A stretch of DNA of 43,995 bases, taken from an uncultured Mycoplasmatota bacterium (GTDB lineage: Bacteria > Bacillota_I > Bacilli_A > RF39 > UBA660). The notes beneath the pieces are model-generated. The model ran no database searches. It was not told where the DNA came from and saw only the letters and a program-made list of their open reading frames with translations. The position numbers and the translations under genes are program-made. The number at the start of each line of letters is the position of its first letter. Positions within the stretch are counted from its first letter, which is position 1. Shown here piece by piece: positions 21,908-42,690 of the stretch. The stretch covers positions 1-43,995 of the forward strand of contig CAMYTM010000001.1 in assembly GCA_947297555.1 (NCBI GenBank), written 5' to 3'.

Positions 21908-21989
21908 TAATAAATACACCTCTTTTTCTTTTGTTAAAGAAAGTATAACATATTGTGCTGTAAAAATCAACAATTTAGTAATTATTATG

Positions 21990-22018
21990 TTGACAAACTC
22001 AATATACGATGTTATACT
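21990..22018 (+). promoter_or_regulatory. sigma-A promoter driving the rightward module of element 1
   Basis: TTGACA (21990-21995), 17 nt, TATACT (22013-22018). A leader hairpin 'ttttgatg-taaaact-catcaaaa' follows at 22028-22050. Confidence 0.55.
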
Positions 22019-22060
22019 AGCCTCAGTTTTTGATGTAAAACTCATCAAAAGAAAGGAGGA

Positions 22061-22324: not shown

Positions 22325-22530
22325 ATAACTCCTAGTAGATAAGGTACAGTAAGATTAAAGGCTTATGTTAGTACTTATTCTATAAAGAATATAGAATGAA
22401 CTTTGAAATAATCCGAAGGAAAGGATTTAAAATAATGTTCCAGGGGTTTTTATACCCAAAATTACGAATTGCTAGAGAATATTGGTATGGCTTTAAAGGC
22501 ATTTTATCGCAGTTCCTAGAATAGTATTAA

Positions 22531-22962
22531 GTGACCAAACTTGTTCGCAGGAAGGATAAATTAGTGTATGGAATCATTAATTCATTATCAAATAAGAAAG
22601 AATATTGCTATGCTAGTAATCATTATTTTTCTAAAGTGTTAGGTGTGTGTACAAAAACAATTTCTAATTCTATTCAAAATTTAGCGAGTAGGAATTATAT
22701 TTATATTAAATATGTGGATAACCAAAGACAAATTTATATAAATGAAGAGATTGTTAGAGAAGAAAATGCTAAGGTAGTAGAAAAGAAGTTCTATGATAAC
22801 ATAGAAAGAAATTGCCAATATAAAAGAAAAGAATTTATAAAAGATAATAAAAATAAGAATGATGTTCCTTATTGGTTAGAACATTCGGAAGTTTGTAAAA
22901 GTGAAGAAATGAGTTTAAACGATAAGGGAGAATTAGAAAGTATTATGAAAAAATATAAGTAA
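22531..22962 (+). CDS. helix-turn-helix protein, paralogue of 35808-36338
   Basis: 'EYCYASNHYFSKVLGVCTKTISNSIQNLASRNYIYIKY' aligns with 'GYCWATNDFFSDRFNVSKQTISKSISSLSNYGYIVLKY' in element 2. GTG start. It lacks about 20 N-terminal residues relative to the paralogue. Confidence 0.6.
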   Translation: MTKLVRRKDKLVYGIINSLSNKKEYCYASNHYFSKVLGVCTKTISNSIQNLASRNYIYIKYVDNQRQIYINEEIVREENAKVVEKKFYDNIERNCQYKRKEFIKDNKNKNDVPYWLEHSEVCKSEEMSLNDKGELESIMKKYK

Positions 22963-23040
22963 AATAAGGAGGATTGATACATGGTTAAATTTTACGGAGG
23001 ATTCTATTTATAATTAGAATAATAAAGGGGGTTATATAAT

Positions 23041-23187
23041 ATGGAGGTAAAATACAATGTAACATTTAAAACAAAAGATAATGTAATCGTAACAGATGAA
23101 GAATTAGAAAATATTATTACTAGAAAATTACTTAAGGTAATACTTAACTTGGAAAATAGCAATATACAGGCTGTAAATAATTCTTAA
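23041..23187 (+). CDS. small ORF (48 aa) upstream of recombinase 1, candidate accessory/directionality factor
   Basis: Not in the ORF track. SD 'aaggggg' then ATG at 23041. 'MEVKYNVTFKTKDN...LENIITRKLLKVILN' is similar to the small ORFs at 40933 and 36380. Confidence 0.55.
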   Translation: MEVKYNVTFKTKDNVIVTDEELENIITRKLLKVILNLENSNIQAVNNS

Positions 23188-23250
23188 GTTAGAGTATAAT
23201 ACACTTATAGATTTAGATTGTTTATTGCAACTAGAGAGTAGGTGCAGTAA

Positions 23251-24849
23251 ATGGAAAAGGTAGGTGTATATTGTAGACTATCTGATGAAGATAGAAACAA
23301 AAAAAATAAAAATGATGATAGTGAATCTATTGCTAATCAAAAAAGTATGCTTTTAAAATATGCTCTTGAACAAGGTTGGGAAATTGTTGATATTTATTCA
23401 GATGATGATTTTTCGGGAGCAGGTACCTTTAGACCTGATTTTGAAAGAATGATTAAAGATTGTGAAAATGGAAGAATTAATATAGTTCTTTGTAAAACAC
23501 AAAGTCGTTTTTCAAGAGATATGGAAGTGATTGAGAAATATCTTCATAATAAGTTTGTTGAGTGGGGTGTAAGGTTTGTTAGTATTGTAGATAATGCTGA
23601 TACTAACAATGAATCCAATAAAAAATCAAGACAAATTAATGGACTTGTAAATGAATGGTATTTGGAAGATTTATCAAATAATGTTAAGAAGTCATTAAAA
23701 AATAAACGAGATGATGGACTTTATATGGGAAGTTTTGCTCCCTATGGTTATTTGAAAGACCCAAATAATAAACACAAGTTAATGGTTGATGAAGATGTTG
23801 CTTATATTGTTAGAGAGATATTCCAAAAATATAAAGATGGGATAGGGTATCATAAAATTGCTATGGACTTAAATGCAAGAGGAATATTGTGTCCTTCACT
23901 TTATAAAAAATCAATAGGAAGTAATTTTATTTGTGCTAATCGCCAAGGTACAGGGACTTGGACTTCTGATACTATTGCTAAAATTTTAAAAAATGAAACT
24001 TATATAGGTAAGCTAGTACAGGGAAAAAGAACAAGTGTTAGTTACAAGAATCACAAGTCAAAAAAAGTGCCAAAAGATAAATGGTCGGTTACGGAAAATG
24101 CTCACGAGCCAATTATTGATAAAGAAACTTGGTATTTAGTACAAAAAAGATTAGGCAAAAATGAGTGTCCATCTAAAAATGGCGAAATTCATATGTTAAG
24201 TCAAAAAGTTTATTGTGCTGATTGTGGAAAAATTTTTATGAAAAATGTATTTAATGTAAGTAGTAAAGGAAATACAAAAGTAAAAAAGGCTTATCTTCAA
24301 TGTAAGGGACATAAAAAGTATCATGTTTGCGATAATAATAAATCTTTTCGTTTAGATATATTGGAAGAGTATTTGTTAAATGCAATTAATGAGCTACTAA
24401 AAAAATGTAATGAAGAACTTTTGAAAAATGAATTTACAAAAGAAATGGATAGGAAGTCTAATCAAGATATAAGAATCACAAATCTGAATAAAGAAAAAGC
24501 AAGTTTTGAGAAAAAATTAAGTGAGAGTAAATTGTATTTTAAGACTTTGTACGAGGATAAGTTAAAAGGTGTTATTACGGAAGAAGATTTTACAATGTTA
24601 CGAGGCGAGTACTCAAAAGATGTAGAAAGTTATCAACTAAGACTTGAAGAGATTAACATTGAACTTGATGAGATGAATACAAGAAAAGATAATTCAAAAG
24701 ACATTGAGAGCATACTTAAGAAATATAAACATATTGATAAACTTAATAAAATAATTGTAGATGAGTTTGTAGAAAAAATCTATATAGGAACTTTAGATAA
24801 AGAAACAAAATCAAGAGAAATTCGGATTGAATGGAACTTTGATTTATAA
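23251..24849 (+). CDS. large serine recombinase (element 1)
   Basis: 532 aa. Resolvase-type N-terminus 'VGVYCRLSDED' (catalytic Ser), recombinase domain 'APYGYLKDPNNKHKLMVDE', Cys-rich zinc ribbon 'YCADCG...LQCKG' and a C-terminal coiled coil. Confidence 0.9.
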   Translation: MEKVGVYCRLSDEDRNKKNKNDDSESIANQKSMLLKYALEQGWEIVDIYSDDDFSGAGTFRPDFERMIKDCENGRINIVLCKTQSRFSRDMEVIEKYLHNKFVEWGVRFVSIVDNADTNNESNKKSRQINGLVNEWYLEDLSNNVKKSLKNKRDDGLYMGSFAPYGYLKDPNNKHKLMVDEDVAYIVREIFQKYKDGIGYHKIAMDLNARGILCPSLYKKSIGSNFICANRQGTGTWTSDTIAKILKNETYIGKLVQGKRTSVSYKNHKSKKVPKDKWSVTENAHEPIIDKETWYLVQKRLGKNECPSKNGEIHMLSQKVYCADCGKIFMKNVFNVSSKGNTKVKKAYLQCKGHKKYHVCDNNKSFRLDILEEYLLNAINELLKKCNEELLKNEFTKEMDRKSNQDIRITNLNKEKASFEKKLSESKLYFKTLYEDKLKGVITEEDFTMLRGEYSKDVESYQLRLEEINIELDEMNTRKDNSKDIESILKKYKHIDKLNKIIVDEFVEKIYIGTLDKETKSREIRIEWNFDL

Positions 24850-24907
24850 AATATAACCTATAATTTTAGCAAAAGAAGTAATTTTTGGGGAATTCAGTTT
24901 CAAGCCA

Positions 24908-25139
24908 TGGTGGTACTGACCCTGGGACTATTGCAAATGGAATAACAGAAAAAGAATATACATTAAAGATAAGTGAATATATTCATAATCGTTTGGATGA
25001 TTTAGGAATCGAAAATAGTATGACAAGAACTACAGATGAAACTTTATCTCCTGATGTTAGACCAGGTAGAGCACAGAGTTTTTATGGAAAGGGTAATGAT
25101 GTGATTCTTGTGTCTAATCATATAAATGCAGGAGGAGGT
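24908..25139 (+). CDS. split Amidase_3/LysM gene, segment 2 of 4
   Basis: 'GGTDPGTIANGITEKEYTLKISEYIHNRLDDLGIENSMTRTTDE...VILVSNHINAGGG' is the central Amidase_3 domain. The track ORF 24885-25169 is this segment plus element-derived head and tail. Confidence 0.85.
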
Positions 25140-25196
25140 AATAATCATTGTGTAACAAAGTATGTATAACAATTAAAGCCGAAAATATAATAAGAA

Positions 25197-25544
25197 ATGA
25201 GGATTAGTTATAATATGAGTTACCCAAAAGAAAATGAAATAATGAATGGAGATATATCTGATGAAGAATTTAATGAGAAATATTTGCCATTTTATGATAA
25301 TTTCAATGATTATATGGTTGGGTTTGTAATACCAGATGCAGTAGCATTTTATATTGTAAATAGCTATTTAAGAGGATGCTTAGTTGATAGTAAATTATAT
25401 AATCATATTAATTCTGCAGTAGATATTTTTAATTATAGATGTGATATAGATGTTATAATTCCATCTATAGAAAAGATATTAAACATAAAATATAATCTTA
25501 AAATTACTGGAAGAAATCCATTAAAACTAGAAAAATATTATTAA
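25197..25544 (+). CDS. hypothetical small protein
   Basis: 115-aa ORF. The ATG at 25215 has a better SD ('gagga'). No recognisable domain. Confidence 0.45.
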   Translation: MRISYNMSYPKENEIMNGDISDEEFNEKYLPFYDNFNDYMVGFVIPDAVAFYIVNSYLRGCLVDSKLYNHINSAVDIFNYRCDIDVIIPSIEKILNIKYNLKITGRNPLKLEKYY

Positions 25545-25611
25545 AAATTTAGCACTGTCAACATTGATGGTGCTTTTTTGTATGGTATAATAATTTAAGA
25601 GAGGTGGTAGT

Positions 25612-28600
25612 ATGAAACCAGAAGAATATTATAAGGTAATAAGTGATGAGCTGGCTAAAATTAAAGTGTTAATTGACACAGAAAACAGTATAAATTTGCT
25701 CGATAAAAACATTTTTTTAGAGGATATACTAGCTAATATACTAAATATCATATATGGTTTATCTCTGGTTAATACGAATTTTAATATTAGTAACTATCCA
25801 TCTATTGACTTAAAAGATGAAATTAATAAAACTGCTGTTCAAGTCACTACAAATGTTACTAGGATTAAAGTTCAAAATACGTTGGATACTTTTTTTAAAA
25901 AAGGATATGATAAAACTTTTGATAGGTTGTTTATTGTTGTGTTTGATAATCATTCTTACAGAGGAGAGTTTATTTTATCAAGTAAATTTAATTTTAACAA
26001 GGACGATAACATAATTACTTACGAAAAACTATTAAAAATTATTAAATCTTTAGCTGACGATAAATTAAAAAGAATATATGACTATATTGATATAGCATTA
26101 AAGGAAAACATTTATAATTTATACTGGATGAAAAAAAATACAATTAAATCATTAAATAATTTGGACAAAAGATACAATAGAAAGCTAAATGTTTTTAATG
26201 AAGAAACAAATAAAATTAAGATGTTTTTTTCCCAAGAAGATTGCAAAAAAGAAATAATTAACATGATAGAAGCAATAATTATCCTTATTGAAAATAATGA
26301 TATTAAAACGAATTTTAAAATTAATGAAATAGTTAATGATTTTACATTAATTACAATAAATGAAAAATTAGAAGCATTATCTAGACTAGAGAAATCAGTA
26401 TGTAAAAACTTTGAAGAGAAAGGAAATGATTATTATGATTATAATAAAATACATAATTTTGAAACAGAATATTATTTGTTACTTGAAAAATTAAACAATT
26501 TAATAGCATTATATTTTTCAAAAGTTATTATATATAGTGGAGTAGCTGGTATTGGTAAAAGCCATACATTAGCATCCTTTGTTAACGAAGACTATATCTC
26601 TAAAAATTTTCCTGCATTATTAGTATTGGGACAAGATTTTAGTGATGGTAGCAATATAGAAAACCAATTTTGTGAAATAACATCTGGGAAAAATAATTTT
26701 GATGAATTGTTATTTTATTTAAATGAGTTAGGAAGAGTAAGAAACATTATAGTACCCATAATTATTGATGGTTTAAACGAAAGTAATGATAATAGTATAT
26801 GGAAAAAGGGATTAAATAATTTTATTAATGAAGTAGTAAAATATTCAAATTTAAAATTAGTATTATCTGTTAGGGAAACATATTTTGAATTCTGTATTCC
26901 AGAAGAAGTAAAGAATAGAAATGGAATTTTGGTATATAATCATGAAGGTTTTAATGGTAATAGTATAAAAGCTATAGAGGAATTTTTTGAATTTTATGGC
27001 ATTGATATTCCTATATTTCAAATTATACATAATGAATTTAAAAATCCATTGTTTTTAACAACATATTGTAATATTGTCAGCAAGTATAATATACAGATAA
27101 ATGAAAATGAATATAAAAATTTTATACAAATATTTCAAATGTACTTATATAAAATAAATGAAATATTTGTTGAAAAGTACAATTTATTAAATAAACCTAA
27201 TATTATTAAAGAAGTTTTGAATAACTATATACAAAAATGGGTAGAAAATAATAAATCTATAACTGAGAAAGAGTTTTTAACTCTTCTTAGTGAAATTAGT
27301 GAATTATATGATATAAGTAAAAGAGAAATACTTAACTTTGTTATTGAAAATGGATTGTTTTATAAGGAGAGACGATTTAATGAAGAAATTATTGTATTCA
27401 CATATGAAAGATATGAAAAAATCTGTTTAGCAATGTATTTATTAGAATCTATAAATTCAATTGATGAATTAAAACAATCAATAAATGATGGATTATTAAA
27501 AGAATATGTTGATTCATCAGATAAATTTGATAATGGAATATTAGAGGAATTGATAAATATTATTCAGGAAGATTTTAAAGTTGATTTTGTTAGTATTATT
27601 TCTTTTGACAAAATTAAATTTGACTATTTTATTAAAAAAGATTATATAAAAAGCCTTTTATGGTTCAAGGGACAATATGACATAAATATCATTATAAATA
27701 ATATAAAAGAATTATATAAAGATGAAGATTATGCTAATGAAATTATTGATGTATTCATAAAAATGTCATATTTAGAAACTAATCCATTAAATATAAAAAT
27801 ATTAAATGAATATATGTTAAAGTTATCAATGCCACAACTAGATTATAATTGGTCTATAGTTATAGATTCTTATTATTCTGATTTTAAAAAAGAATCAATT
27901 GATAATATTATTAATTATTGCTTAAATTATGGTAGTGAATATTTGAATGATAATACTATATATTTATTATCAGTATTATTTAGTTGGCTTTTAAGTTCAT
28001 CAAATAGATATTTAAGGGATATATCAACTAAATCCTTAACTAAATTATTATTAAATAATCATAAAGTATCTGTAGAATTACTTAAGAATTTTAAAAATGT
28101 TAATGATATGTATGTGTTGGAAAGAATAGTAGCAGCAATATATGGAAGTATAATAAGAAGTTCTAATAGTAATAATATTGAAGAATTATCTCATGAACTT
28201 TATAATGTAATTTATAAAAATGAAAAACCTATTGATAATGTAGTAATAAAAGTATACTCAAGAAAAATTTTTGCTTATATGAAAGAAAAATATCAGATAA
28301 GTCTTTATGACAATATAGAAAATGAAGCCAAATCAGAATGGTATCAACATCTACCTACTAATGATGAAATTGATAAATATGATGTTGATTATAAAGATGA
28401 GAATGTTGATAAAAGAAAATATTCTAATTCTGCAATAATTCATTCTATGGTAACTGAATATGGTAGAGGAACTAGTGCTTATGGAGATTTTGGAAGATAT
28501 GTATTAGGGTATTTTTTAAATCCATTTGCGTATGTGGTAGAAGATGTACAATTATTAGCAAATAAGGCAACAGAAAGAGTTTTTGACTATGGATATGATT

Positions 28601-29655
28601 ATAAATTATTTGGTAATTATGACTCTGCTGTTAAATATAATCAACATCGTCATGAACATTCAACTGAAAGAATAGGAAAAAAGTATCAATGGATAGCAAC
28701 ATATGAATTATTATCAAAACTATATGATAACTTTATTCCACATTATGATGTATATGATGATGATATAATTGATTTTGATAATAGAGAATATTTTGACAAA
28801 GATCATAAAAGGACTTTTGATGAATCAAGTATTCGATATGTAAAATATAATTTAGAAGAGGAGTTTAATAAACTGCTAACAATTGATACAACAAATTTTA
28901 TTTTAGAACAAGGCGACAAGAAAAATTATCTTGATAATAATAATTTTGATATTAATAATGAAGAAAACTATTCTGAATATGTTGTAAAAGACATTAATAA
29001 TATTAAATATATAAGCTTATTTAATTTATTCTCAGCTGAGGATAGAAACTTTAATTTAAAAAATGTTGATAGAAATTCTTTAACTATTGCGTGTACAGCC
29101 TTTGTATATTCAGATAAAGAAAAACTAGAAAAAAGTGATTATAAATATTATTCACAAGGTACTTATAATGAGACATTTAATATACAATTATTTGATATTC
29201 CCCAATCATCAGAATATAAATTAAATTATGATAGGAAATATCAAAATCAGGATTTACAAACTAGTTATAAGACATGCTATGAAGAATACATATGGGAAAA
29301 AGAATATGATGAATCAATCAGAAATCCGATTAAAATTTTAGTTCCGCAAAAATGGATTATTGATGATTTTTGTTTAGAACATAGAAATGAAGGAGAATGG
29401 TATAGAGATAATGAACTATTATGTTTTCAGCCATTATTGAAAGATGGTGAACAAGAATTAGTTATAAAATATGATGAATTTATTAAATTTTTAAAAGGCA
29501 AAAATTTAAATTTAGGTTGGACTATTTATTGTGAAAAATCTCATAATAATAATTATGTTTCTTGGAGAGTAAATTTATTTTATGATTTTAAAAATATGAA
29601 ATTTAACAATGAAGTTTATGATAAGGAAGAATGGGAATCTCGATCCTTATGGTAA
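25612..29655 (+). CDS. 1,347-aa STAND/NACHT-like P-loop NTPase with N-terminal SMEK-like domain and long C-terminal region
   Basis: SD 'gagaggtgg'. Walker A 'GVAGIGKSHT' at about aa 310 and NACHT-style Walker B 'IIIDGLNES'. The N-terminal 'NIFLEDILANILNIIYGLSLVNTN...YPSIDLKDEINKTAVQVTT' resembles the SMEK-type N-terminal domain (from memory). The C-terminal ~900 aa has no recognised catalytic motif. Confidence 0.7.
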   Translation: MKPEEYYKVISDELAKIKVLIDTENSINLLDKNIFLEDILANILNIIYGLSLVNTNFNISNYPSIDLKDEINKTAVQVTTNVTRIKVQNTLDTFFKKGYDKTFDRLFIVVFDNHSYRGEFILSSKFNFNKDDNIITYEKLLKIIKSLADDKLKRIYDYIDIALKENIYNLYWMKKNTIKSLNNLDKRYNRKLNVFNEETNKIKMFFSQEDCKKEIINMIEAIIILIENNDIKTNFKINEIVNDFTLITINEKLEALSRLEKSVCKNFEEKGNDYYDYNKIHNFETEYYLLLEKLNNLIALYFSKVIIYSGVAGIGKSHTLASFVNEDYISKNFPALLVLGQDFSDGSNIENQFCEITSGKNNFDELLFYLNELGRVRNIIVPIIIDGLNESNDNSIWKKGLNNFINEVVKYSNLKLVLSVRETYFEFCIPEEVKNRNGILVYNHEGFNGNSIKAIEEFFEFYGIDIPIFQIIHNEFKNPLFLTTYCNIVSKYNIQINENEYKNFIQIFQMYLYKINEIFVEKYNLLNKPNIIKEVLNNYIQKWVENNKSITEKEFLTLLSEISELYDISKREILNFVIENGLFYKERRFNEEIIVFTYERYEKICLAMYLLESINSIDELKQSINDGLLKEYVDSSDKFDNGILEELINIIQEDFKVDFVSIISFDKIKFDYFIKKDYIKSLLWFKGQYDINIIINNIKELYKDEDYANEIIDVFIKMSYLETNPLNIKILNEYMLKLSMPQLDYNWSIVIDSYYSDFKKESIDNIINYCLNYGSEYLNDNTIYLLSVLFSWLLSSSNRYLRDISTKSLTKLLLNNHKVSVELLKNFKNVNDMYVLERIVAAIYGSIIRSSNSNNIEELSHELYNVIYKNEKPIDNVVIKVYSRKIFAYMKEKYQISLYDNIENEAKSEWYQHLPTNDEIDKYDVDYKDENVDKRKYSNSAIIHSMVTEYGRGTSAYGDFGRYVLGYFLNPFAYVVEDVQLLANKATERVFDYGYDYKLFGNYDSAVKYNQHRHEHSTERIGKKYQWIATYELLSKLYDNFIPHYDVYDDDIIDFDNREYFDKDHKRTFDESSIRYVKYNLEEEFNKLLTIDTTNFILEQGDKKNYLDNNNFDINNEENYSEYVVKDINNIKYISLFNLFSAEDRNFNLKNVDRNSLTIACTAFVYSDKEKLEKSDYKYYSQGTYNETFNIQLFDIPQSSEYKLNYDRKYQNQDLQTSYKTCYEEYIWEKEYDESIRNPIKILVPQKWIIDDFCLEHRNEGEWYRDNELLCFQPLLKDGEQELVIKYDEFIKFLKGKNLNLGWTIYCEKSHNNNYVSWRVNLFYDFKNMKFNNEVYDKEEWESRSLW

Positions 29656-29685
29656 AAAATAATGATTAAAATTTACTGAGTTATT

Positions 29686-29721
29686 AAAAACAAATAGGCA
29701 AAAATTTTCCTATTTGTTTTT
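29686..29721 (+). terminator. rho-independent terminator after the STAND gene
   Basis: 13-bp perfect stem 'aaaaacaaatagg'/'cctatttgttttt' with a 10-nt loop. Confidence 0.7.
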
Positions 29722-29941
29722 AAATTTAATATAAAATAAAAAGGACAAAATTGTTCTTTTATTAGAGGTAACTTAGTAGTCTTGTACAATATATCAAGCA
29801 TGGTGTCTACACACCCTAAAAGCTTGTTAGGGAGTATCCCTAAAACCCATTACAAATTAGTCTCTGAAAGTTAATAAAATTTCTAAATATAATTGTGAAA
29901 AGGACATTTACTAAAATATAAAATATTAGTATAATATTGTT

Positions 29942-30544
29942 ATGAAAGTAAATGGTGGCTTTATGAGCAATGAAGATAAAATTAAAGATTATTTAGATAA
30001 AAATTATGGTTATATAACAACTTCTGAAATATTGAGTATGAATATTAGCAAACCTTTAATTAAAAAATATGTTGAAAATGGATTATTAAGAAAAGTTTCA
30101 CATGGCTTATACATAGATAGCAATTTATTAGAAGATGATGAATACATTTTTCAAAGAAGATATCCCGAGGCAATATTTTCATATAATACAGCATTATATT
30201 TTCTTAATTTGTCTAATAGAGCTCCACATAAAATTGAAATAACTTTAAGTAATAGAAAGAGAATTAGTTGTGATTATGAAGTACATTATATTTCAGATAA
30301 ATATTATGATATTGGCATTATTGAAATAGAAAGCATGTTTGGTAACCCAATTAGAATTTATAATGCTGAAAGGTCTATTTGTGATATGTTACGAAATGGT
30401 GATTTTGAATTAGAATTACAAAATACTATTCTTAGAAATTATTTTAGAAGTAAAGATAGAGATCTTGATAAGCTTTTAGAGTATGCAAAAATATTTAAAA
30501 TTTACGATAAAGTCAATACTTTAGTTGAGTATGAAATGGGTTAG
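29942..30544 (+). CDS. AbiEi-like (type IV TA antitoxin family) wHTH protein
   Basis: 'GYITTSEILSMNISKPLIKKYVENGLLRKVSHGLY' matches the AbiEi_4 N-terminal pattern. The start may be the ATG at 29963 (SD 'ggtgg'). Confidence 0.65.
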   Translation: MKVNGGFMSNEDKIKDYLDKNYGYITTSEILSMNISKPLIKKYVENGLLRKVSHGLYIDSNLLEDDEYIFQRRYPEAIFSYNTALYFLNLSNRAPHKIEITLSNRKRISCDYEVHYISDKYYDIGIIEIESMFGNPIRIYNAERSICDMLRNGDFELELQNTILRNYFRSKDRDLDKLLEYAKIFKIYDKVNTLVEYEMG

Positions 30545-30556
30545 GAGGTTTCTTAA

Positions 30557-31393
30557 ATGAGTGAAAAAGAATTAGATTCGAGTAATGTTGAATATACAAA
30601 AGAAATTAAGCCAGAAGGTTATGTAAAACAACTACAATGGGATATGGCTATTGGTCTTCAAGAAGTTGATAATTTAAAACCTTCTAAATATTTAGAAAAA
30701 TTATTAGAAGACAATGTAAGTGGTAAACTAACTATTAAACAAGTAGAAGAAGAATTAAGAGAATACTATATTGCAAAAGATAAAAAACAGGAATTAAATC
30801 ATAATGAATTAGAATGTGATTTTGTATCAACAAGAATTGTTGAATTGTTAGATAAAAATAATTTTGAATTATCAGTAGATTATTTAAAATATGTTCATAA
30901 ATATTTATTTCAGGATGTATATGAATTTGCAGGTGAATTTAGAAATATAGATTTTTCTAAACATGAAAAAATATTGAATAATGATTCAGTTGCTTATGGA
31001 GATTGCAAGACATTAAAAGAATCATTAGAATATGATATATCTTTGGAAAAAGAAAAGAATTATAAAAATATGAGTGTTGTAGAAGTGATAAATAATATCA
31101 CTAAATTCTCATCTAGCATATGGCAAGTTCATCCATTTAGAGAAGGTAATACTAGAACAACAGCATTATTTATAGAAAAATACTTAATTAGTTTAGGTTA
31201 TGAAGTAGATAATACTCTATTTAAAGATAGATCAGTTTATTTTAGAAATGCATTGGTTAGAAGTAATTATTTTAATAATTATTTAAATATTAAAGAAGAT
31301 AGTAGTTATTTAGTTAAATTTTATGAAAATTTATTATTAGGTAAGAATAATAATTTACATTCACAGGATTTAATTGTTAAAGAGTTATTTTAG
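30557..31393 (+). CDS. Fic/DOC family protein
   Basis: 278 aa. Fic motif '[12 protein letters not shown]', a variant of HxFx(D/E)GNGRxxR. SD 'ggagg' is 13 bp after the AbiEi-like stop. Confidence 0.8.
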
Positions 31394-31409
31394 AAGTGAG
31401 GTAATAGTT

Positions 31410-33284: not shown

Positions 33285-33286
33285 TT

Positions 33287-35587
33287 ATGAAAGAATTAAA
33301 AAGATATCAGGAGCAAGCAATAAAGCAGTTGATAACAGCTTCTAAAATGTTTTTTGAAACAGATAACAATGAAACTATTGTGTTTCAATCACCAACGGGC
33401 AGTGGTAAAACATTTATGATGACTAATTATATTTCTGAAATTATTAGAGATACGCAGTTGAATTTATGCTTTTTATGGGTATCAATTGGAAGTGGAAATT
33501 TACATGTTCAAAGTTATAATAGTGTTAAGAAAAATATATCATCACTTGTTGATTGTAGTTTGTTAGAAGAAGACTTTTTTGGAAAAAGAAAAAAAATTAA
33601 CAAAAATGAAATAGTGTTTTTAAATTGGGAAAAGATAAGGCAAAAGGATGGGATAACAGGACAATACACAAATAATGTTATGAAGGATAAGGATGATATA
33701 AATTTTATAGAAGTTCTTGAAAATACACGAAACAATGATACAAAAATAATATTAATTATAGATGAAAGTCACAAATCATCTAATACTATAAGAGCGAGAG
33801 AACTTAGAGATGAGATAATAAAACCTTTCCTAACAATAGAGATGAGTGCTACTCCAGTACTTACTTCAGATATGCAAATGAAAGTTACCGTAGATCCAAA
33901 CAAAGTAATAGAAGAAGGAATGATAAAGAAAGAAATTATCATAAATAAAGATATATCATCAATATCTAATGATGATATATTCTCACAAAATTTAATTTTA
34001 GAAAGTGCATATCAAAAACGTTTATATTTGAAAAAAATGTATGAAAAACAAAAAGCTAATATAAATCCATTAGTGTTAATACAATTACCAAATTCAGATG
34101 CTGGTGAAATTAAGAAAAAAGCAGTTTTAGATTTTTTGGAAAGCAAAAATATAAATATTGATAGTGGGAAAATTGGTATATGGTTGACAGAAGATAAGAT
34201 GAATATTGAAAGTGAAGAATTAACTAAAAATGACAGTAAAGTAGAATTCTTATTATTTAAGCAAGCTGTTGATACTGGATGGGATTGTCCTAGAGCACAG
34301 ATACTTGTGAAATTTAGAGAGTCAAATAGCATTATATTTGAAATTCAAACTGTTGGAAGAATACTAAGAATGCCTGAAGCAAAACATTACGATTGTGACG
34401 ATTTAAATATCGCATATGTTTATACAAATATAAAATCCATCGAAATAAAAAAAGAGGTTTATAATCCTAATATCATAAAATCTATTTGTTCCAAAAGAAT
34501 TGAAAATTATGAAAATATCAAATTGAGATCATATTATAAAAACAGAGTTGATTTTGGTGATATAACTAGTGAATATACAATGTTTTTTGAACGTGCCTTT
34601 TGTAGATTTTTCAAAATAGATTATAAAGATAATGAAATCCCAAATTACAAGGAATCATTAAAAAAATTAATGCAGAATGGAATTAAAACTAATTATGATG
34701 AAATGGATACTATCCTAAATAATATAGAGCTAGAAACAAATAATATTGACTCGGGAATGGTTGTAAGTGAAGATAGTGTAGTGTATATGAAATTATCACC
34801 AGATGACTTGGATATTAAATATAATAAAATTTTATTAAAGAATATAGGGAACTTTTCTCCTAGTAGATCTATCTCTAAATTAAAAACAGCAATATTATAT
34901 GTATTTAGAAAATATTTAAATATGAAACCTGCAGATGGCGGAATAACACTTATTCAAAATTTAATTGTTAGAAATGAGGAAATATTTGAAAAAATTTTGT
35001 CATTGGCTTTGGATGAATATAAAAGTTTTCATGAAAAAGATATTGAATTAAAAAATCCCGGCAGATATAATGATGATTGGGAAATTTTAACTAGCAAAAA
35101 TTATAATCCTGAAACTAATGTTGAGATAAAATCTAAATTATCAATTTATCAACCACTGTACTTGCCTTGTGATAATAATGGGAAGGTTGATGAACTAGAA
35201 CTAAAATTCATAGAATATTTAGAAGAAAATAATGAATTTATTAAATGGTTTTGGAAGAATGGTGACGAACATATGGAATCAAATTTTGGAATTAGGAAAG
35301 AAAATGGTTCTACTTTTCAACCAGATTTTATTATTTCATTTGTTGATGGAAGTATAGGAATATTTGATACAAAAGCAATTGGATTTAATGAAAATGATAA
35401 TATAAGTAAATCTAATGCACTATATAAATATGTATCTGATGAAAGATTTAAAGGAAAGAACATAGTTGGAGGTTTAGTTGTGTATACATCACAAGGTTTT
35501 AGATATTTCAGTGAATCACAATACAAGAGTTATAATGAATCTCCAGAAAGTTGGATGGATTTTGATGACTTTTTTAAAAAAATCTGA
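33287..35587 (+). CDS. res: type III restriction enzyme Res subunit (SF2 helicase + PD-(D/E)XK)
   Basis: 'QSPTGSGKT' and 'IIDESHK' helicase motifs, 'DTGWDCPRA' and 'QTVGRILR', and a C-terminal 'FQPDFII...GIFDTK' nuclease-like motif. Starts 2 bp after mod. Confidence 0.8.
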   Translation: MKELKRYQEQAIKQLITASKMFFETDNNETIVFQSPTGSGKTFMMTNYISEIIRDTQLNLCFLWVSIGSGNLHVQSYNSVKKNISSLVDCSLLEEDFFGKRKKINKNEIVFLNWEKIRQKDGITGQYTNNVMKDKDDINFIEVLENTRNNDTKIILIIDESHKSSNTIRARELRDEIIKPFLTIEMSATPVLTSDMQMKVTVDPNKVIEEGMIKKEIIINKDISSISNDDIFSQNLILESAYQKRLYLKKMYEKQKANINPLVLIQLPNSDAGEIKKKAVLDFLESKNINIDSGKIGIWLTEDKMNIESEELTKNDSKVEFLLFKQAVDTGWDCPRAQILVKFRESNSIIFEIQTVGRILRMPEAKHYDCDDLNIAYVYTNIKSIEIKKEVYNPNIIKSICSKRIENYENIKLRSYYKNRVDFGDITSEYTMFFERAFCRFFKIDYKDNEIPNYKESLKKLMQNGIKTNYDEMDTILNNIELETNNIDSGMVVSEDSVVYMKLSPDDLDIKYNKILLKNIGNFSPSRSISKLKTAILYVFRKYLNMKPADGGITLIQNLIVRNEEIFEKILSLALDEYKSFHEKDIELKNPGRYNDDWEILTSKNYNPETNVEIKSKLSIYQPLYLPCDNNGKVDELELKFIEYLEENNEFIKWFWKNGDEHMESNFGIRKENGSTFQPDFIISFVDGSIGIFDTKAIGFNENDNISKSNALYKYVSDERFKGKNIVGGLVVYTSQGFRYFSESQYKSYNESPESWMDFDDFFKKI

Positions 35588-35807
35588 TATAATTAAATTA
35601 GGGTACGAGGAGTGTGCTCGGAAAAGTCGACTTTATTAAAGGAAGTTTATGCAATGTTCTTAATAAGAACTTAACAAGAATGAAGTGCCAAAATTAAAGG
35701 GAAGTACTAGAGTATTTCTAGAATTGATGTACTATTCTTTGTTCAGTTCTTTTTCTTATGCTCTAAAATACTGACAAATAATAGACTATTAAGGTAATCT
35801 TATATCA

Positions 35808-36338
35808 ATGAATATGGAAAGAAATATTGAACCTTTTATTAAATTAGTTTTCCCAACAAGTTTATTGGGAGATAAGAATTTAACATCATTAGAAAGATTA
35901 CTATTAATTTACATTTTGTCACTTTGTAAGAAGTATGGATATTGTTGGGCTACTAATGATTTTTTTAGTGATAGATTTAATGTTAGTAAGCAAACAATAT
36001 CAAAAAGTATAAGTAGTTTATCTAATTATGGTTATATTGTTTTAAAGTATGATAAGAAAGAAAAGAATAATTCAAAAAGAAAAATCATGATGTCAGGGGT
36101 ATTCAAAAAAAGAATATCAGATATACAAGAAAATCTTAATACTAGTATTCAAGAAAACTTTAAACAATATAATAAAAATAATAATATAAGAAAAAATATA
36201 GGACCTGTTATAAAGTGTGATGAAGAAGGAAATATCATATCTTGGAATAATAAACCAACAATATCAGAACCTATGAGTGAAAAAGATGTTAAAGAATTAG
36301 AAGAATTAATAAATGAAATAACAAAAGGAGATGAATAA
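35808..36338 (+). CDS. helix-turn-helix protein, paralogue of 22531-22962
   Basis: See the alignment given for 22531. It holds the same position (two genes upstream of the recombinase) as in element 1. Confidence 0.6.
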   Translation: MNMERNIEPFIKLVFPTSLLGDKNLTSLERLLLIYILSLCKKYGYCWATNDFFSDRFNVSKQTISKSISSLSNYGYIVLKYDKKEKNNSKRKIMMSGVFKKRISDIQENLNTSIQENFKQYNKNNNIRKNIGPVIKCDEEGNIISWNNKPTISEPMSEKDVKELEELINEITKGDE

Positions 36339-36379
36339 TTAATTGCTTAACAAAGTCATACATTATAGAGAGGTGACTT

Positions 36380-36472
36380 ATGTTTAATATAACAGAAACA
36401 TTTAAAAAAGATTCTCCTAATTTAACTTTGTTGATAACTAATTATATAAAAAGAGTGATGGATAATGAGTAG
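36380..36472 (+). CDS. small ORF (30 aa) upstream of recombinase 2
   Basis: Not in the ORF track. SD 'agaggtga' then ATG at 36380. 'MFNITETFKKDSPNLTLLITNYIKRVMDNE' shares the FK..(D/E)..L..(L/I)IT...K pattern with the other two small ORFs. Confidence 0.4.
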   Translation: MFNITETFKKDSPNLTLLITNYIKRVMDNE

Positions 36473-36548
36473 AACAATGGTGTTATATTGTTCTTTATGG
36501 TACAATATAATTGGCTTTAATTTGTTATACAAGAAGAAAGGAGTATAA

Positions 36549-38138
36549 ATGTATAACAATATAGTAAAAGCACCAGAGTTTTACAAAGCAGGAATATATA
36601 TAAGATTATCTGAAGCAGATCAAGGAAAATCTTACGAAGCAGAAAGTGAGAGTGTCCTTAATCAAAGAAATATACTAATGAAATTTGTAAAAGATAATGG
36701 TTTTATTTTTGTAGGAGAATACGTTGATGATGGCTATTCTGGTACTGATTTTGATAGACCAGGATTTAATCTAATGATGGAAGATTTAAAAAAAGGACTT
36801 ATAAATCTTGTAATAGTTAAGGATTTATCAAGATTAGGAAGAGATCATATATTAACCGGTTATTATGTGGAAAATTATTTTCCTGAAAATGGTATACGAT
36901 TTATATCTATACAAGAAAGTTATGATAACTTTAAATTAAAATCAAGTAATGATTCTGTAATGTTTATATTTGCATGTAATGATTTTTATAGCAAACAAAA
37001 TTCAGTTAAAATTAGAAATGTATTGGAATATAAAAAAAGAAAAGGAAAATTTATTGGTAGTGCTCCAAGTTATGGGTATATGAGAGATCCTAATGATAAA
37101 GGACATTTATTACCTGATCCTGAATATGCACCCATTGTTAAGAAAATATTTGAAATGGCTAACAATGGTGTTGGTTTGTCAGAAATAACTACTTATTTAA
37201 ATGATAATAAAATTAAAACACCAAGCAGTCTCAAAAGAAAAAATCCTCGTGCGAAGAGCAAATATAATTCTATTTGGACAATATCTTCTGTAAAAAAGAT
37301 TTTAAAAAATCAAATGTATGTTGGTGATATGGTTCAGAACATTCAGTATAAAAGAGGTTACAAAACTAAAAAGAAATTGGCTGTACCTAAGGAAAATTGG
37401 ATTGTTGTTAAAAATACCCATGAGCCTCTTGTAGATAGAATGGTTTTTGAAAAAATACAGAATAATGTTAAAAGAACTAATATAACTAATATAACTAAGA
37501 GAGAAAAAAGATTATTTGAGAATTTATTATATTGTAAGGAATGTGGTAATACATTAACTATTATTTATAGAAAAAATCATAATTATTGGACAATCAATTG
37601 TAATAAATATTCAAGAGATCCAAAAAGACATTTATGTTATCCACATTTTATGCCTTATGATCAATTAGAAGAAGCATTATTAGAAGTTGTTAAAAAAACT
37701 TGCAAAAAATACTTGGATGCAATTAATGTCCCAAATCTTGCACTTGAACTAAAGGATATAAAGAAAAATAATCTTAAAATAGAAGCAAGAATATTTGATT
37801 TAGAAAAAAAAGAAAAAGAACTTCTTAATAAGTTGGATATGTTATATGAAGATAAGTTTAGGGGATTAGTATCAGATGAGATGTATAAAAGAATAGCTAA
37901 TGAAACTGAAGTATTATTAACTAAATCAAGAACTGAGGTTAAAAAGTTAAAAGCAGATGAAAAAGCAATACAAAATAAGACAGATGATTTAAAAGAATAT
38001 GAAGATAAAATAAAATCATTAATTGATCTAGAAAATCCAACTAGAGAGTTAATGCAAGCCATTATTGATAAAATAGTAATAGACAAAGATAAAAACATTG
38101 AAATAATTTATAAATTTAGTATATTAAATAGTATTTAA
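36549..38138 (+). CDS. large serine recombinase (element 2)
   Basis: 529 aa. 'AGIYIRLSEAD', 'VKDLSRLGRD', 'APSYGYMRDPNDKGHLLPD', zinc ribbon 'YCKECG' and a coiled-coil tail. Confidence 0.9.
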   Translation: MYNNIVKAPEFYKAGIYIRLSEADQGKSYEAESESVLNQRNILMKFVKDNGFIFVGEYVDDGYSGTDFDRPGFNLMMEDLKKGLINLVIVKDLSRLGRDHILTGYYVENYFPENGIRFISIQESYDNFKLKSSNDSVMFIFACNDFYSKQNSVKIRNVLEYKKRKGKFIGSAPSYGYMRDPNDKGHLLPDPEYAPIVKKIFEMANNGVGLSEITTYLNDNKIKTPSSLKRKNPRAKSKYNSIWTISSVKKILKNQMYVGDMVQNIQYKRGYKTKKKLAVPKENWIVVKNTHEPLVDRMVFEKIQNNVKRTNITNITKREKRLFENLLYCKECGNTLTIIYRKNHNYWTINCNKYSRDPKRHLCYPHFMPYDQLEEALLEVVKKTCKKYLDAINVPNLALELKDIKKNNLKIEARIFDLEKKEKELLNKLDMLYEDKFRGLVSDEMYKRIANETEVLLTKSRTEVKKLKADEKAIQNKTDDLKEYEDKIKSLIDLENPTRELMQAIIDKIVIDKDKNIEIIYKFSILNSI

Positions 38139-38187
38139 AGACTTTGTTCCTATTGGAACAAGTTAAACATAAAAATAGATAAACTAC

Positions 38188-39150
38188 TTATTGTTGAGAT
38201 TTGGTTTTAATACTATCATATATAAAGGGAATTATTATTACAGTTGATAAAAAATCAAAGCCTTTTAAAACATCCTCAGAAAATAGTGATTTATTAATTA
38301 CAGTAATTAGATAAACTATAATTAGTGCTGCTATTATTGATATATTGGTTATTTTTCTTGTAAATAGCAATTTATTAACTGTATCATTAGTTATATAATT
38401 AAATATCTTATATAATGTTAGTTTTAACTTCTTAAGAAGTTTTAGAAATGTTATATAAATTATATTTATTAGAATTGTTGGAAGACATAGCATAAAAAAT
38501 ATTATATTATCAACAATTTTAGTTAGTGTTGTTTTATATTTTTTATATAATATAAAGTCATATGATATAAATTTAATTATAGTATTGTTATTATTTTGTA
38601 TAGTATTTTTAATTTTGAAATTTTTGGATTCAAGTAAAATTGTTATATTAGATAACAAAACAGTTAAATTAATAGACAGCAAGAATACAAATGAAACAAG
38701 TTTAATTACTAAATAAAATAAAATCAAAATTTCTTTTGTAACATGATCAATGATACTAAATGAAGTTATATAAACTGGAGTCACATAAGCAGAAAGAAAT
38801 ATAATGAAAAAAATAGCTGCACCAGTATATGCGTATTTATTATCTAATGAAAAATCATTATTATCTGTATATATATTTTTAATCGATTTTATAAAAGAAA
38901 TAGATGGTATAAATAATATTGCTAAAGATAATAGAACTTTCTTGGCAAAAAATAGTATTAATAAAGAACAAATTACTAATGTTAACCATACTGAAGTTAA
39001 TTTACATTTTGTTATAGTATCTAAATTTTCTTTTTCAATTTTAGATTTTGATTCATTTTTTTCTATAAATTGTAAAAGAATAAAATTGATAGCAGCAATT
39101 CCAATAATTAAGAATTCAAAAAAATGATTATATAAAATGAATTTTAGCAT
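38188..39150 (-). CDS. polytopic membrane protein of unknown function
   Basis: 320 aa on the minus strand with SD 'agaggtg'. About 8 hydrophobic segments. It lies between recombinase 2 and the right junction. Confidence 0.55.
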   Translation of the reverse strand: MLKFILYNHFFEFLIIGIAAINFILLQFIEKNESKSKIEKENLDTITKCKLTSVWLTLVICSLLILFFAKKVLLSLAILFIPSISFIKSIKNIYTDNNDFSLDNKYAYTGAAIFFIIFLSAYVTPVYITSFSIIDHVTKEILILFYLVIKLVSFVFLLSINLTVLLSNITILLESKNFKIKNTIQNNNNTIIKFISYDFILYKKYKTTLTKIVDNIIFFMLCLPTILINIIYITFLKLLKKLKLTLYKIFNYITNDTVNKLLFTRKITNISIIAALIIVYLITVINKSLFSEDVLKGFDFLSTVIIIPFIYDSIKTKSQQ

Positions 39151-39252
39151 AAAACACCTCTATAATTTAGTTATCTATTTTATCATTTTTTTAAAATATA
39201 AACAATAGTTTGAAAAATAAGCAAAAATGTTACACTTTGATTATTGCCTGGT

Positions 39253-39593
39253 GGCGATGGTGCGGAAGTAATCTATTCCTTACGTAATAGCGATAGGTTA
39301 TCAAGGATTATTAGTGATAATTTTACTAAAGCAGGTCAAAATGTTCGTAAGTATTATCAAAGAAGGCTACCAAGTAATCCAAATCAAGATTATTATTACA
39401 TTTTAAGAAATACTCCAAATAACGAATCAATTATTGTAGAATATGGTTTTGCAGATAGTACAGGGGACGATGTTAGTCAATTGAAAAATAATTGGGAAGG
39501 TTTAGCAGAAGCCGTTGTTAAATCTTTAGCAGAATATATTGGTGTTCCTTATACTCCAGTATCTTTAGAAAATACACATATAGTAAAAAGTGG
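39253..39593 (+). CDS. split Amidase_3/LysM gene, segment 3 of 4
   Basis: 'GDGAEVIYSLRNSDRLSRII...DYYYILRNTPNNESIIVEYGFADS...' is the C-terminal half of Amidase_3 plus the start of LysM 1 ('HIVKSG'). The track ORF 39244-39624 includes element-derived ends. Confidence 0.85.
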
Positions 39594-39724
39594 GGATACA
39601 ATTTTTATGGGGAATAATGAGTAATATTTTATAATTTAATTAAAAATATATTATTATGTAAAAATAATTTGATATTTGAGTTGAAAGAATATGATATAAT
39701 GTTAGAAGAAAAGGAGTTAATATA

Positions 39725-40252
39725 ATGGACGAAGTAATAGATATTTTAGATGAAAAAACAGGTGAAAAAACAGGTAAAACTATTTCAAAGAAAAAGGCAC
39801 ATAGAATTGGAACTTGGCATGGATCAATTCATATATTAATAGTTAATTCTGAACATAATAAAACATTACTGCAAAAAAGATGTGAATTAAAAGATTTGTA
39901 TCCTAACACATGGGATATTGCAGTAGGTGGTCATATAAGTGCTGGAGAAGATGATATAACATCTGCAAAAAGAGAATTAGAAGAAGAATTAGGATTAAAT
40001 TCGTCGCAATATGAATTAAAATTTATTGAAAAAACTCAGGAAAAATTAAATAATAATGGTGTAATAAGTAATGAGTATGTTTCTATTTTTGTTGTATATG
40101 CAAATATAGATATTAACGATATTGTTCTACAAGAGGAAGAGGTTAGTGAAATAAAATGGTGTTCAAAAGAAGAATTGAATTCATTTATTAAAGATAATAA
40201 TATTATTCCTCATGTTAGAGAATATGAAATATTAAATGAACTATTGAAATAA
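39725..40252 (+). CDS. NUDIX hydrolase
   Basis: 175 aa. The Nudix box 'GGHISAGEDDITSAKRELEEELGL' fits Gx5Ex7REUxEExGU. SD 'aaggag'. Confidence 0.85.
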   Translation: MDEVIDILDEKTGEKTGKTISKKKAHRIGTWHGSIHILIVNSEHNKTLLQKRCELKDLYPNTWDIAVGGHISAGEDDITSAKRELEEELGLNSSQYELKFIEKTQEKLNNNGVISNEYVSIFVVYANIDINDIVLQEEEVSEIKWCSKEELNSFIKDNNIIPHVREYEILNELLK

Positions 40253-40296
40253 TAAAGATATTTTTGGAATTTCAATATTATAATTAATGAAAAATT

Positions 40297-40345
40297 AATC
40301 ATCCTATAAAATTTAGTGAAAACTAGAAATTAGGATGATTTTTTG
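40297..40345 (+). terminator. terminator-like hairpin after the NUDIX gene
   Basis: 10-bp stem 'aatcatccta'/'taggatgatt' (24-nt loop) followed by T5. Confidence 0.45.
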
Positions 40346-40384
40346 TGCTATAAATTATTGTTATTATTAGGTTTATCCCATATA

Positions 40385-40535
40385 TCATCCTACAAAGTAG
40401 GATGAATTTCGTAAGTACGAAATAAGAATGGTGCATATACAAATCCTTATTTTATAAGGAAAAGTGAATGTATATGCACCATCTTCTTATCCTGCTTGTG
40501 TAGAAATGTCATATTTTAATAGTTTTGTAGGATGA
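40385..40535 (+). promoter_or_regulatory. structured intergenic region: GTAGGATGA motif copies and a 13-bp inverted repeat
   Basis: Hairpin 'tcatcctac-aaa-gtaggatga' (40385-40405), palindrome 'tttcgta-ag-tacgaaa' (40407-40422), perfect 13-bp inverted repeat 'atggtgcatatac'/'gtatatgcaccat' (40428-40440 / 40470-40482) enclosing 'tccttat-ttt-ataagga', and another 'gtaggatga' at 40527-40535. Confidence 0.5.
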
Positions 40536-40616
40536 TAGACAAAACTTTCTATACTTTATGACTTGACTCTTCTTTTTAGTGGAGGTAACATGCATCATGC
40601 GAAGGAGATGGTGTAT

Positions 40617-40766
40617 ATGAGAAGGTTTAATTTTTATTTGCCTGAAGAGTTATTTGAACGAATGAAATTACTTGCAAATTACTATAACATTTCTATAACT
40701 AAATTAATGGTAGAACTACTAGAAATTGGATATATAGGTATGTTAGATACAAGAAAAAATAAATAA
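40617..40766 (+). CDS. ribbon-helix-helix (CopG/Arc-like) protein
   Basis: 'MRRFNFYLPEELFERMKLLANYYNISITKLMVELLEIGY' has the RHH beta-alpha-alpha pattern. SD 'aaggag' precedes the ATG at 40617. In-frame alternative starts are at 40590 and 40563. Confidence 0.6.
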   Translation: MRRFNFYLPEELFERMKLLANYYNISITKLMVELLEIGYIGMLDTRKNK

Positions 40767-40932
40767 ATTTATAAAAATGAGAGGGTTAGGTGAAGAATAT
40801 GAAGATAATAATTTTTAATTTAATGGAGGTTTATGATAGTAAGTAATATTGTTAGGTGTGTTATAGACATACCAAATAATATTACTAAAACAAAATTTAA
40901 AGCCATAGAATTTAATGGAGGTATTAAACTCT

Positions 40933-41112
40933 ATGGTTAAATACAAAGTTAATTTAAAATTTAAAGAAAATGGAAAATCTTTAAATGAATTAATAACTGA
41001 AGTATTAAAAATAGAACTAAATAAAAAAATAAATGAGACTTGCAATATCTTAAAAAAGGATCTACCATTCAAGAATACTCATTATTCCCAAAGTGAAGGG
41101 AGTAGTAATTAA
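40933..41112 (+). CDS. small ORF (59 aa) translationally coupled to recombinase 3
   Basis: GGAGG at 40917-40921. 'MVKYKVNLKFKENGKSLNELITEVLKIELN' is similar to the small ORF at 23041. Its stop overlaps the recombinase start (TAATG at 41110-41114). Confidence 0.55.
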   Translation: MVKYKVNLKFKENGKSLNELITEVLKIELNKKINETCNILKKDLPFKNTHYSQSEGSSN

Positions 41113-42677: not shown

Positions 42678-42690
42678 AAAGTGTATCTGG

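Follow-up and report, generated by a model that had tools for sequence, protein, structure and literature searches.

Three elements split one amidase gene, each with a small ORF upstream of its recombinase

The window analysed here is the whole of a 44-kb contig (43,995 nucleotides, CAMYTM010000001.1; C1 in our numbering) from the metagenome-assembled genome (MAG) of an uncultured Mycoplasmatota bacterium, a genome of 975 kb in 192 contigs with about 25% G+C. Three elements interrupt a single gene for a protein with an Amidase_3 domain and four LysM repeats, cutting it into four pieces (Table 1). Each element encodes a large serine recombinase (LSR; LSR1, LSR2 and LSR3, respectively) and, directly upstream of it, a small open reading frame (ORF; S1, S2 and S3), and it is these three ORFs, as candidate recombination directionality factors (RDFs), that are considered here.

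The intact 403-aa Amidase_3-LysM frame of a relative (G138) aligns to the four pieces of the window. The host gene is whole in some relatives (about 390–410 aa), with open frames of 370–460 aa in many, while further ones carry interruptions at one or two of the sites used here (open frames of about 316–332 aa); the elements described here interrupt a gene that some relatives keep whole. Imperfect inverted repeats lie at the ends of each element, and the recombinase gene is at or near the right end; TTCCCCAA is found at both ends of element 1 and AATAATCAnnGTGTAACA at both ends of element 2, in each case in inverted orientation. Of 80 species loci, 57 have the same LysM piece after the S3-LSR3 pair and, with the same three sites of one gene recurring, the elements look site-specific.

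An earlier sequence-only reading had placed the three small ORFs correctly (Table 1), and its distances to the recombinases are also right: the S1 stop codon lies 63 nt 5' of the LSR1 start (23251), S2 is located 76 nt 5' of the LSR2 start (36549), and the TAA of S3 overlaps the ATG of LSR3 by 1 nt (TAATG). As it had claimed, every one of them has a Shine-Dalgarno (SD) motif of its own, namely AAAGGGGG for S1, GAGAGGTG for S2 and GGAGGT for S3. The reported absence of two of the three from the ORF track is consistent with a cut-off of 60 aa, which explains why they are missing and which only an extended S3 frame (65 aa, 40915–41112) passes.

Two further ORFs were rejected as separate genes. 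One is a 35-aa ORF that overlaps the S3 start (40833–40940), the conserved 'IEFxGG' of which corresponds to the CATAGAAT box followed by GGAGG; it is annotated as a gene in related contigs, and its frame is fused to S3 in some genomes (P0150, P0183 and P0204). The other is a 27-aa ORF between S2 and LSR2, whose apparent conservation is that of a -10-like box, an invariant TGTTATAC and the LSR2 SD motif.

Table 1. Coordinates of the split amidase gene, the three elements and the associated features in the window.
Feature	Position	Strand	Basis
Putative sigmaK-type promoter of host gene (AC, 17 nt, CATACTTTA)	13069..13097	+	Read from sequence
Host gene piece 1, 15 codons, up to VVIDPGH	13116..13160	+	Alignment with intact gene
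Element 1, about 11.7 kb: cargo, split MobV relaxase, XRE switch, HTH_36, S1, LSR1	13161..24905	+	Junctions by alignment with intact amidase gene, ends +/- about 3 nt
HTH_36 (DnaD/replication-initiator-like) gene upstream of S1	22531..22962	+	Pfam HTH_36 1e-11; PHROG replication-initiation families
S1, 48-aa small gene, family A (strand-loop-helix pattern)	23041..23187	+	ORF with SD AAAGGGGG
LSR1, 532-aa large serine recombinase with DUF4368 tail, right end of element 1	23251..24849	+	Pfam Resolvase, Recombinase, Zn_ribbon_recom, DUF4368
Host gene piece 2	24906..25135	+	tblastn: intact-frame aa 15-93 at 24906-25142; Pfam Amidase_3 positions 6-85
Element 2, about 14.1 kb: SMEK/STAND protein, AbiEi-Fic, type III restriction-modification, HTH_36, S2, LSR2, 320-aa gene	25136..39249	+	Alignment with intact gene; cargo by Pfam
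HTH_36 paralogue upstream of S2	35808..36338	+	Pfam HTH_36 1e-9
CATACATT box, sigmaE/K-type -10-like element before S2	36357..36364	+	TCATA invariant in 14 orthologous upstream regions
S2, 30-aa small gene, family B	36380..36472	+	ORF with SD GAGAGGTG; jackhmmer link to S3
Extended -10-like element TGgTACAATATAAT in S2-LSR2 spacer	36498..36511	+	TGnTAnAAT-like in orthologues where segment aligns
LSR2, 529-aa large serine recombinase of element 2	36549..38138	+	Pfam Resolvase, Recombinase, Zn_ribbon_recom
Host gene piece 3	39250..39606	+	Intact-frame aa 91-209; Pfam Amidase_3 positions 85-173
Element 3, about 3.1 kb: NUDIX, RHH, 35-aa ORF, S3, LSR3	39607..42688	+	Host protein alignment ends 39606, restarts 42689
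CATAGAAT box before S3	40904..40911	+	Position and form as in other family-B loci; conserved in L001 too
S3, 59-aa small gene, family B	40933..41112	+	ORF with SD GGAGGT; translational coupling to LSR3
LSR3, 521-aa large serine recombinase, right end of element 3	41112..42677	+	Pfam Resolvase, Recombinase, Zn_ribbon_recom; AlphaFold 2 fold
Host gene piece 4, four LysM repeats	42689..43276	+	Intact-frame aa 205-402 (aligned 42689-43273); Pfam LysM x4

The small ORFs are conserved genes linked to large serine recombinases

Loci of recombinase orthologues came from as many as 400 genomes within the order. Directly upstream of almost every sampled recombinase of the LSR1–LSR3 clade lies an ORF of 27–70 aa, with a common pattern of a short strand (e.g. 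x-Y-K-V-N-x-x-F), a polar loop (often E-N-G-K) and an amphipathic helix (L-x-E-L-I-x-x-x-L). Iterative jackhmmer searches of 11,300 six-frame ORFs from these loci, to which the whole MAG had been added as decoys, recovered 52 ORFs from S3, 39 from S2 and 25 from S1 while hitting no decoy. All matches sit just upstream of recombinase genes. Looser inclusion raised the yield to 62, 45 and 25 matches, respectively, still decoy-free and still upstream of recombinases; 76 of the 93 sampled LSR loci are then covered, four of the unmatched ones having no upstream DNA.

The S2 and S3 sets reach each other via intermediates (E = 6e-8 and 7e-6), while jackhmmer on the same ORFs did not unite them with the S1 set even with an inclusion threshold of E = 0.01. 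Comparison of the profiles by hhalign gives a weak link in the expected register (P = 0.0014, 17.5% probability), and the BLASTP match between S1 and S3 (41% over 34 aa, pairwise E = 0.008) is weak evidence as well. Because of this separation in jackhmmer and the weakness of the hhalign link we do not call them one family, and sequence comparison points instead to two unnamed families, family B with S2 and S3 and family A with S1. The pattern that the sequence-only reading had attributed to all three ORFs thus stands for S2 and S3; S1 falls in a separate family.

The small ORFs persist where DNA similarity has gone. Family A has 25 members, upstream of LSR1-clade genes of 46–80% identity, and LSR2 orthologues with as little as 59% LSR identity still have S2 before them as an ORF of 30–36 aa. 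For S3 there are 636 clustered relatives, 59 aa long, and for S1 21 near-identical clusters; with an S3-only alignment as query, relatives of S3 were found in 134 matched stretches of a one-genome-per-species collection. SD motifs precede the ORF in 24/25 family-B loci and 15/19 family-A loci (background 9%). Most family members lie 50–80 nt from their LSR, which itself has an SD motif, and the 1-nt overlap of an S3-type gene with the LSR start is seen in 56 of 66 loci. Among orthologues sampled at one genome per species, the ratio of non-synonymous to synonymous polymorphism (pN/pS) of S3 is 0.47 in frame versus 0.95 and 1.25 when the frame is shifted; the corresponding values for codons 1–59 of LSR3 are 0.49 versus 1.02 and 1.47. 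S3 is under purifying selection, like the N terminus of the recombinase, and S1–S3 are real, conserved, LSR-linked genes.

The conservation extends well beyond this locus, as a profile search for co-occurrence with LSR genes, proposed by the earlier reading, revealed. Against 1.84 billion representative proteins the family-B profile matched 129 clusters (50% identity) at E<=1e-3, all of 29–78 aa and most of them matched from residue 1, and no fused LSR-partner form was found among these matches. Family-B matches picked irrespective of their context also adjoin serine recombinase genes. A borderline match (P0270, E = 9.9e-4; L106:1-3400) belongs to an element that has an HTH_36 gene and, in place of a serine recombinase, a tyrosine integrase; either it is false or the module is more widely shared.

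No Pfam, NCBIfam or PHROG family scores above its curated cut-off for S1, S2 or S3, and no named family recurs among the 30 + 22 family members. The ESM Atlas, searched with both families, returned only 'hypothetical protein' clusters. For family A, DUF7425 (E = 0.022) and DUF4083 were discarded as weak matches below their cut-offs.

S3 is predicted to dock at the coiled-coil base of its recombinase

LSR1, LSR2 and LSR3 are 30–36% identical to one another, and of 401 genomes from the order, 259 have an LSR2 orthologue (E<=1e-40). DUF4368 (cut-off 25 bits) scores above its cut-off in LSR1 (30.3 bits) and below it in LSR2 (16.8 bits); LSR3 has no DUF4368 match, and the region that aligns to this domain is LSR3 residues 466–517. 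In the AlphaFold 2 (AF2) fold of LSR3 there are zinc-ribbon strands (324–348), a coiled coil (404–433/439–468) and a terminal hairpin (500–515). Its top structural match in the PDB by Foldseek is the SPbeta integrase (9dxh/9dxd, E = 4e-24, 21% identity), the copy searched including the SPbeta and phiC31 integrase-RDF entries, and the solved sequence nearest to LSR3 is the TnpX catalytic domain (E = 6e-29).

Modelled alone, S3 has an extended N terminus, one confident helix (residues 17–43) and a disordered tail, a prediction typical of a protein that folds on its partner. The sequence-only reading had suggested predicting complexes with the cognate recombinases, and the single pair modelled here, S3 with LSR3, with alignments of our own for both chains, reached a confidence (ipSAE) of 0.70, while the best of three controls gave 0.00. 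Of 80 solved complexes 58 attain that mark, as do 2 of 110 mismatched pairs. The runs share at least 68% of their contacts, with a partner pLDDT of at least 59. Residues 2–29 of S3 contact LSR3 residues 365–395, 477–499 and 508–520 in the model, strand 5–11 of S3 pairing with LSR3 residues 509–517. These LSR3 segments are the helices leading into and out of the coiled coil (404–468) together with the terminal beta-hairpin, and they map onto the DUF4368 matches of LSR1 and LSR2. The model supports binding of S3 to LSR3 at the coiled-coil base and the C-terminal hairpin.

In the SPbeta system, the RDF SprB binds the inter-hinge segment of the integrase, next to its second DNA-binding domain (DBD2) and the proximal coiled coil, as well as the extreme C terminus, thereby tying DBD2 to the proximal coiled coil (10.1101/2025.01.03.631226). 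The predicted S3 site is topologically the same, since both are at the coiled-coil base and the C terminus of the recombinase. All known RDFs are predicted to bind at the junction of DBD2 and coiled coil (PMC12286644).

Promoter-like boxes and the sporulation context

The MAG encodes Spo0A (Spo0A_C, 141.7 bits) and SpoIVA (SpoIVA_ATPase, 350.1 bits). Upstream of the host gene, AC and CATACTTTA at a spacing of 17 nt fit the sigmaK consensus of B. subtilis, and two relatives (L119 and L001) have CATAAAATA at the place of CATACTTTA, which together suggest a sigmaK-type promoter for this gene. Of 30 family-B loci, 23 have a CATA box (CATAnAnT-like) at -27..-22 relative to the start codon (background 7%); it would be a mother-cell-like (sigmaE/K-type) promoter of the family-B genes. 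Besides, LSR2 may have a separate promoter in the S2-LSR2 spacer, as the conserved extended -10-like element found there (Table 1) raises the possibility that this recombinase is transcribed separately. The LSR2 leader (36513–36540) has TGTTATAC, invariant in 14 aligned orthologous regions and contained in GGCTTTAATTTGTTATACAA in the window; it is loosely like the GTGTAACA of the element-2 ends and could be an autoregulatory site.

The small proteins as candidate directionality factors

We propose, with a probability of roughly 0.6, that S1–S3 are RDFs belonging to new, unnamed families. As would be expected of RDFs, S1, S2 and S3 are small proteins whose genes share an element with the LSR gene and directly precede it. 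Each would be composed of a strand, a short polar loop and an amphipathic helix and would act as cognate partner of the downstream LSR, docking by addition of its strand to the C-terminal beta-hairpin of the recombinase while its helix packs on the helices linking zinc ribbon and coiled coil (the DUF4368 region in LSR1 and LSR2). In this way the base of the coiled coil would be tied down and the enzyme switched from integration to excision, as SprB does for SprA. In family B, expression of the partner from a mother-cell (sigmaE/K-like) -10 box would lead to excision in the sporulating mother cell, and excision would rebuild the Amidase_3-LysM gene from its four pieces. In element 1, S1 is in an operon behind a strong sigma-70-type promoter (21990–22018) facing the XRE gene, and control of the partner through this XRE-controlled promoter suggests that element 1 would be excised for transfer. 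Binding in the cell, the effect on direction, and the identity and timing of the promoters are what we infer from sequence and model. The sequence-only reading had put forward a conserved recombinase-linked protein as an RDF or regulator candidate; its candidacy is strengthened by the conserved LSR-linked genes, by a docking model of S3 at the RDF site and by a split gene of putative mother-cell type in a genome with sporulation genes, while the idea of one demonstrable family does not hold.

A broader version of this proposal is speculative, and we regard it as possible rather than probable. It takes the DUF4368 of TndX/TnpX-like recombinases as the docking platform for a syntenic superfamily of RDFs of 30–60 residues, with A and B as diverged members, and has three orthogonal pairs firing in the mother cell and reassembling one sigmaK-dependent amidase gene from four pieces. 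To our knowledge docking on the DUF4368 region has not been described before; we know of no RDF for the DUF4368/TndX-like clade and of no described small partner of TnpX or TndX.

Several points weigh against S1–S3 being RDFs. TnpX-type (DUF4368) recombinases are reported in the Tn4451 literature to carry out excision and insertion without a helper. The CATA box occurs in 3 of 18 family-A loci, leaving this family without it, and the pN/pS of S2 (0.62) and S1 (0.52) is only modestly under that of the shifted frames. The complex score is a model confidence reached with alignments of our own, to which likeness to the existing SPbeta integrase-RDF structures could contribute. In a search for similarity to SprB (SPbeta) and gp3 (phiC31), the profiles of both families (A4 and A5) found no recombinase-associated match at E<=10 among PDB chains in a 2026 sequence copy, in which the presence of RDF chains is unconfirmed. 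Finally, a partner coupled to its recombinase, as S3 is in 56 of 66 species loci, would be hard to withhold during integration.

This last point fits at least as well, and favours, a constitutive role, in which the small protein is an obligate structural subunit, a stabiliser or an inhibitor, completing or masking the C-terminal DUF4368 module in both directions and not setting directionality. We consider such a role, the strongest of the rivals, rather improbable, although the docking model fits it equally and the coupling implies roughly fixed co-expression; moreover, in some LSRs a C-terminal extension may fill the RDF site, such enzymes possibly being RDF-free (PMC12286644). What speaks against a constitutive subunit is the arrangement of S1 and S2, which are 63–76 nt away from their LSRs, with a conserved -10-like element for LSR2 alone in the spacer, together with the CATA box that family B has to itself; this layout resembles the split control of sprB and sprA. 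In addition, no fusion of the two partners was found among the 1.84 billion representatives.

The short length of the ORFs (S2 has only 30 aa) and the overlap of the S3 stop with the LSR3 start would suit cis-acting leader or coupling ORFs whose translation sets the recombinase level while the peptide has no function, and the pN/pS of S2 is close to that of one shifted frame (0.69). Yet the amino-acid pattern is conserved over the 129 clusters where DNA similarity is lost, S3 is constrained as much as the recombinase N terminus, most members stand 50–80 nt from an LSR with an SD of its own, and the complex score is specific (0.70 versus 0.00), which makes a pure leader ORF very unlikely. Also unlikely, and the least probable of the readings weighed, are DNA-binding regulators of Xis or ribbon-helix-helix (RHH) type, bending att DNA or repressing promoters and not binding the recombinase. 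A strand and a helix could pair into an RHH-like dimer, and the separate RHH-like gene of element 3 indicates that small regulators do occur in the module; but none of 52 members matches an RHH, HTH or Xis family, the AF2 model has a single helix and lacks the second one of the RHH fold, and the shortest members (27–30 aa) are too small for it. The LSR excision factors characterised so far, in contrast, bind the enzyme (PMC12286644).

Relation to known recombinase-factor pairs

Systems in which a sporulation gene is split by an element with a serine recombinase and a tiny RDF gene next to it are already known. The proposed RDF role of S1–S3 is closest to that of SprB, the 58-aa RDF of SprA encoded by the SPbeta prophage in spsM of Bacillus subtilis, which is likewise small, lies beside the LSR and belongs to an element splitting a mother-cell gene. 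The promoters of sprB, for stress and for sigmaE/K, are its own and separate from the sprA promoter (PMC6957869). LSR3 in turn finds its best structural match in the SPbeta integrase, but is only about 21% identical to SprA and has a DUF4368-type tail. The two factors also differ, as SprB uses helices, a loop and strands, while S3 is modelled as a strand and one helix binding by beta-augmentation.

Tiny genes that are unannotated or easily missed, like S1–S3, are also known from the skin element of B. subtilis (Skr, 64 aa, paired with SpoIVCA), from the gin element of B. cereus (GirX, 42 aa, paired with GirC) and from skinCd (CD1234, paired with CD1231). The skr gene is directly upstream of, and overlaps, spoIVCA (PMC6957869), and the 42-aa GirX has been shown in vitro to act with GirC and, like families A and B, was described as having 'no conserved motif' (PMC5595907). 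Skr and GirX have sporulation-specific expression, and their elements interrupt sporulation genes (PMC6957869, PMC5595907). Skr, GirX and CD1234 were established by genetics, GirX also in vitro, while S1–S3 are known from sequence and model and are likened to them by gene layout. Unlike skin and gin, the present locus combines three such units within a single host gene. It comes from an uncultured gut lineage whose genomes measure about 1–1.5 Mb, and would extend the theme of genes restored by excision in sporulating cells to a gene interrupted at three places.

The LSRs of the window also resemble the TnpX/TndX-type (DUF4368) transposases of Tn4451 and Tn5397, with the TnpX catalytic domain as the solved sequence nearest to LSR3 and DUF4368 found in LSR1. 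DUF4368 LSRs have been placed in the TndX-like multi-targeting clade by Durrant et al. (10.1101/2021.11.05.467528). Unlike that clade, the elements here look site-specific, as judged from the LysM site shared by 57 of 80 species loci.

The discovery of directionality factors is a bottleneck for serine integrases as reversible genome-engineering tools, and known RDFs show neither sequence conservation nor synteny to the integrase gene (PMC12286644). In contrast, the candidate factors described here are syntenic, being encoded just upstream, and fall into recognisable families. Should they be RDFs, a simple upstream-gene rule would yield many, in the order of hundreds, of cognate LSR-RDF pairs, and DUF4368 would gain a function.

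Neighbouring genes and other observations

The HTH genes upstream of S1 and S2, which the sequence-only reading had taken for paralogues, are indeed related HTH_36 proteins (29% identical, E = 8.5e-10). The paired CTAGAG/CTAGAAT motifs that it had noted before them did not withstand counting: there are 31 CTAGAR sites where 35 are expected, so that they are not enriched above chance and were rejected as regulatory sites. Their coordinates had also been slightly off, the actual sites being 22472–22477, 22516–22521, 35707–35712 and 35718–35723. The gene preceding the small ORF varies between loci, being an HTH_36 gene in several and encoding other proteins elsewhere, and it often ends in a Trp-x-Gly motif followed by an acidic E-E-x-K-E-M-E-x-L-L (36200–36338; L061:1-440; L080:678-1217).

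A second Amidase_3 gene, an intact paralogue of 219 aa (2198–2857), is located 10 kb 5' of the split one. In element 1, the MobV (Mob_Pre) relaxase (17087–18367) is represented by two ORFs of 121 aa and 300 aa that correspond to the first and second halves of the Pfam model; it is likely to be broken or read through. LSR2 is separated from the right junction of element 2 by a 320-aa gene on the minus strand (38188–39150) without a family match; in one relative (G108), unlike in the window, the LSR2-orthologous recombinase directly abuts the amidase piece. Elsewhere in the MAG (G000), ORFs of 60 aa and 50 aa precede two serine recombinases of another clade (C89:2400-2582 and C159:2493-2645, both on the minus strand; loci L110 and L111). 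Their matches to SHOCT_2 are weak and below the cut-off (E = 0.003 and 0.05), and they are a third kind of recombinase-linked small gene.

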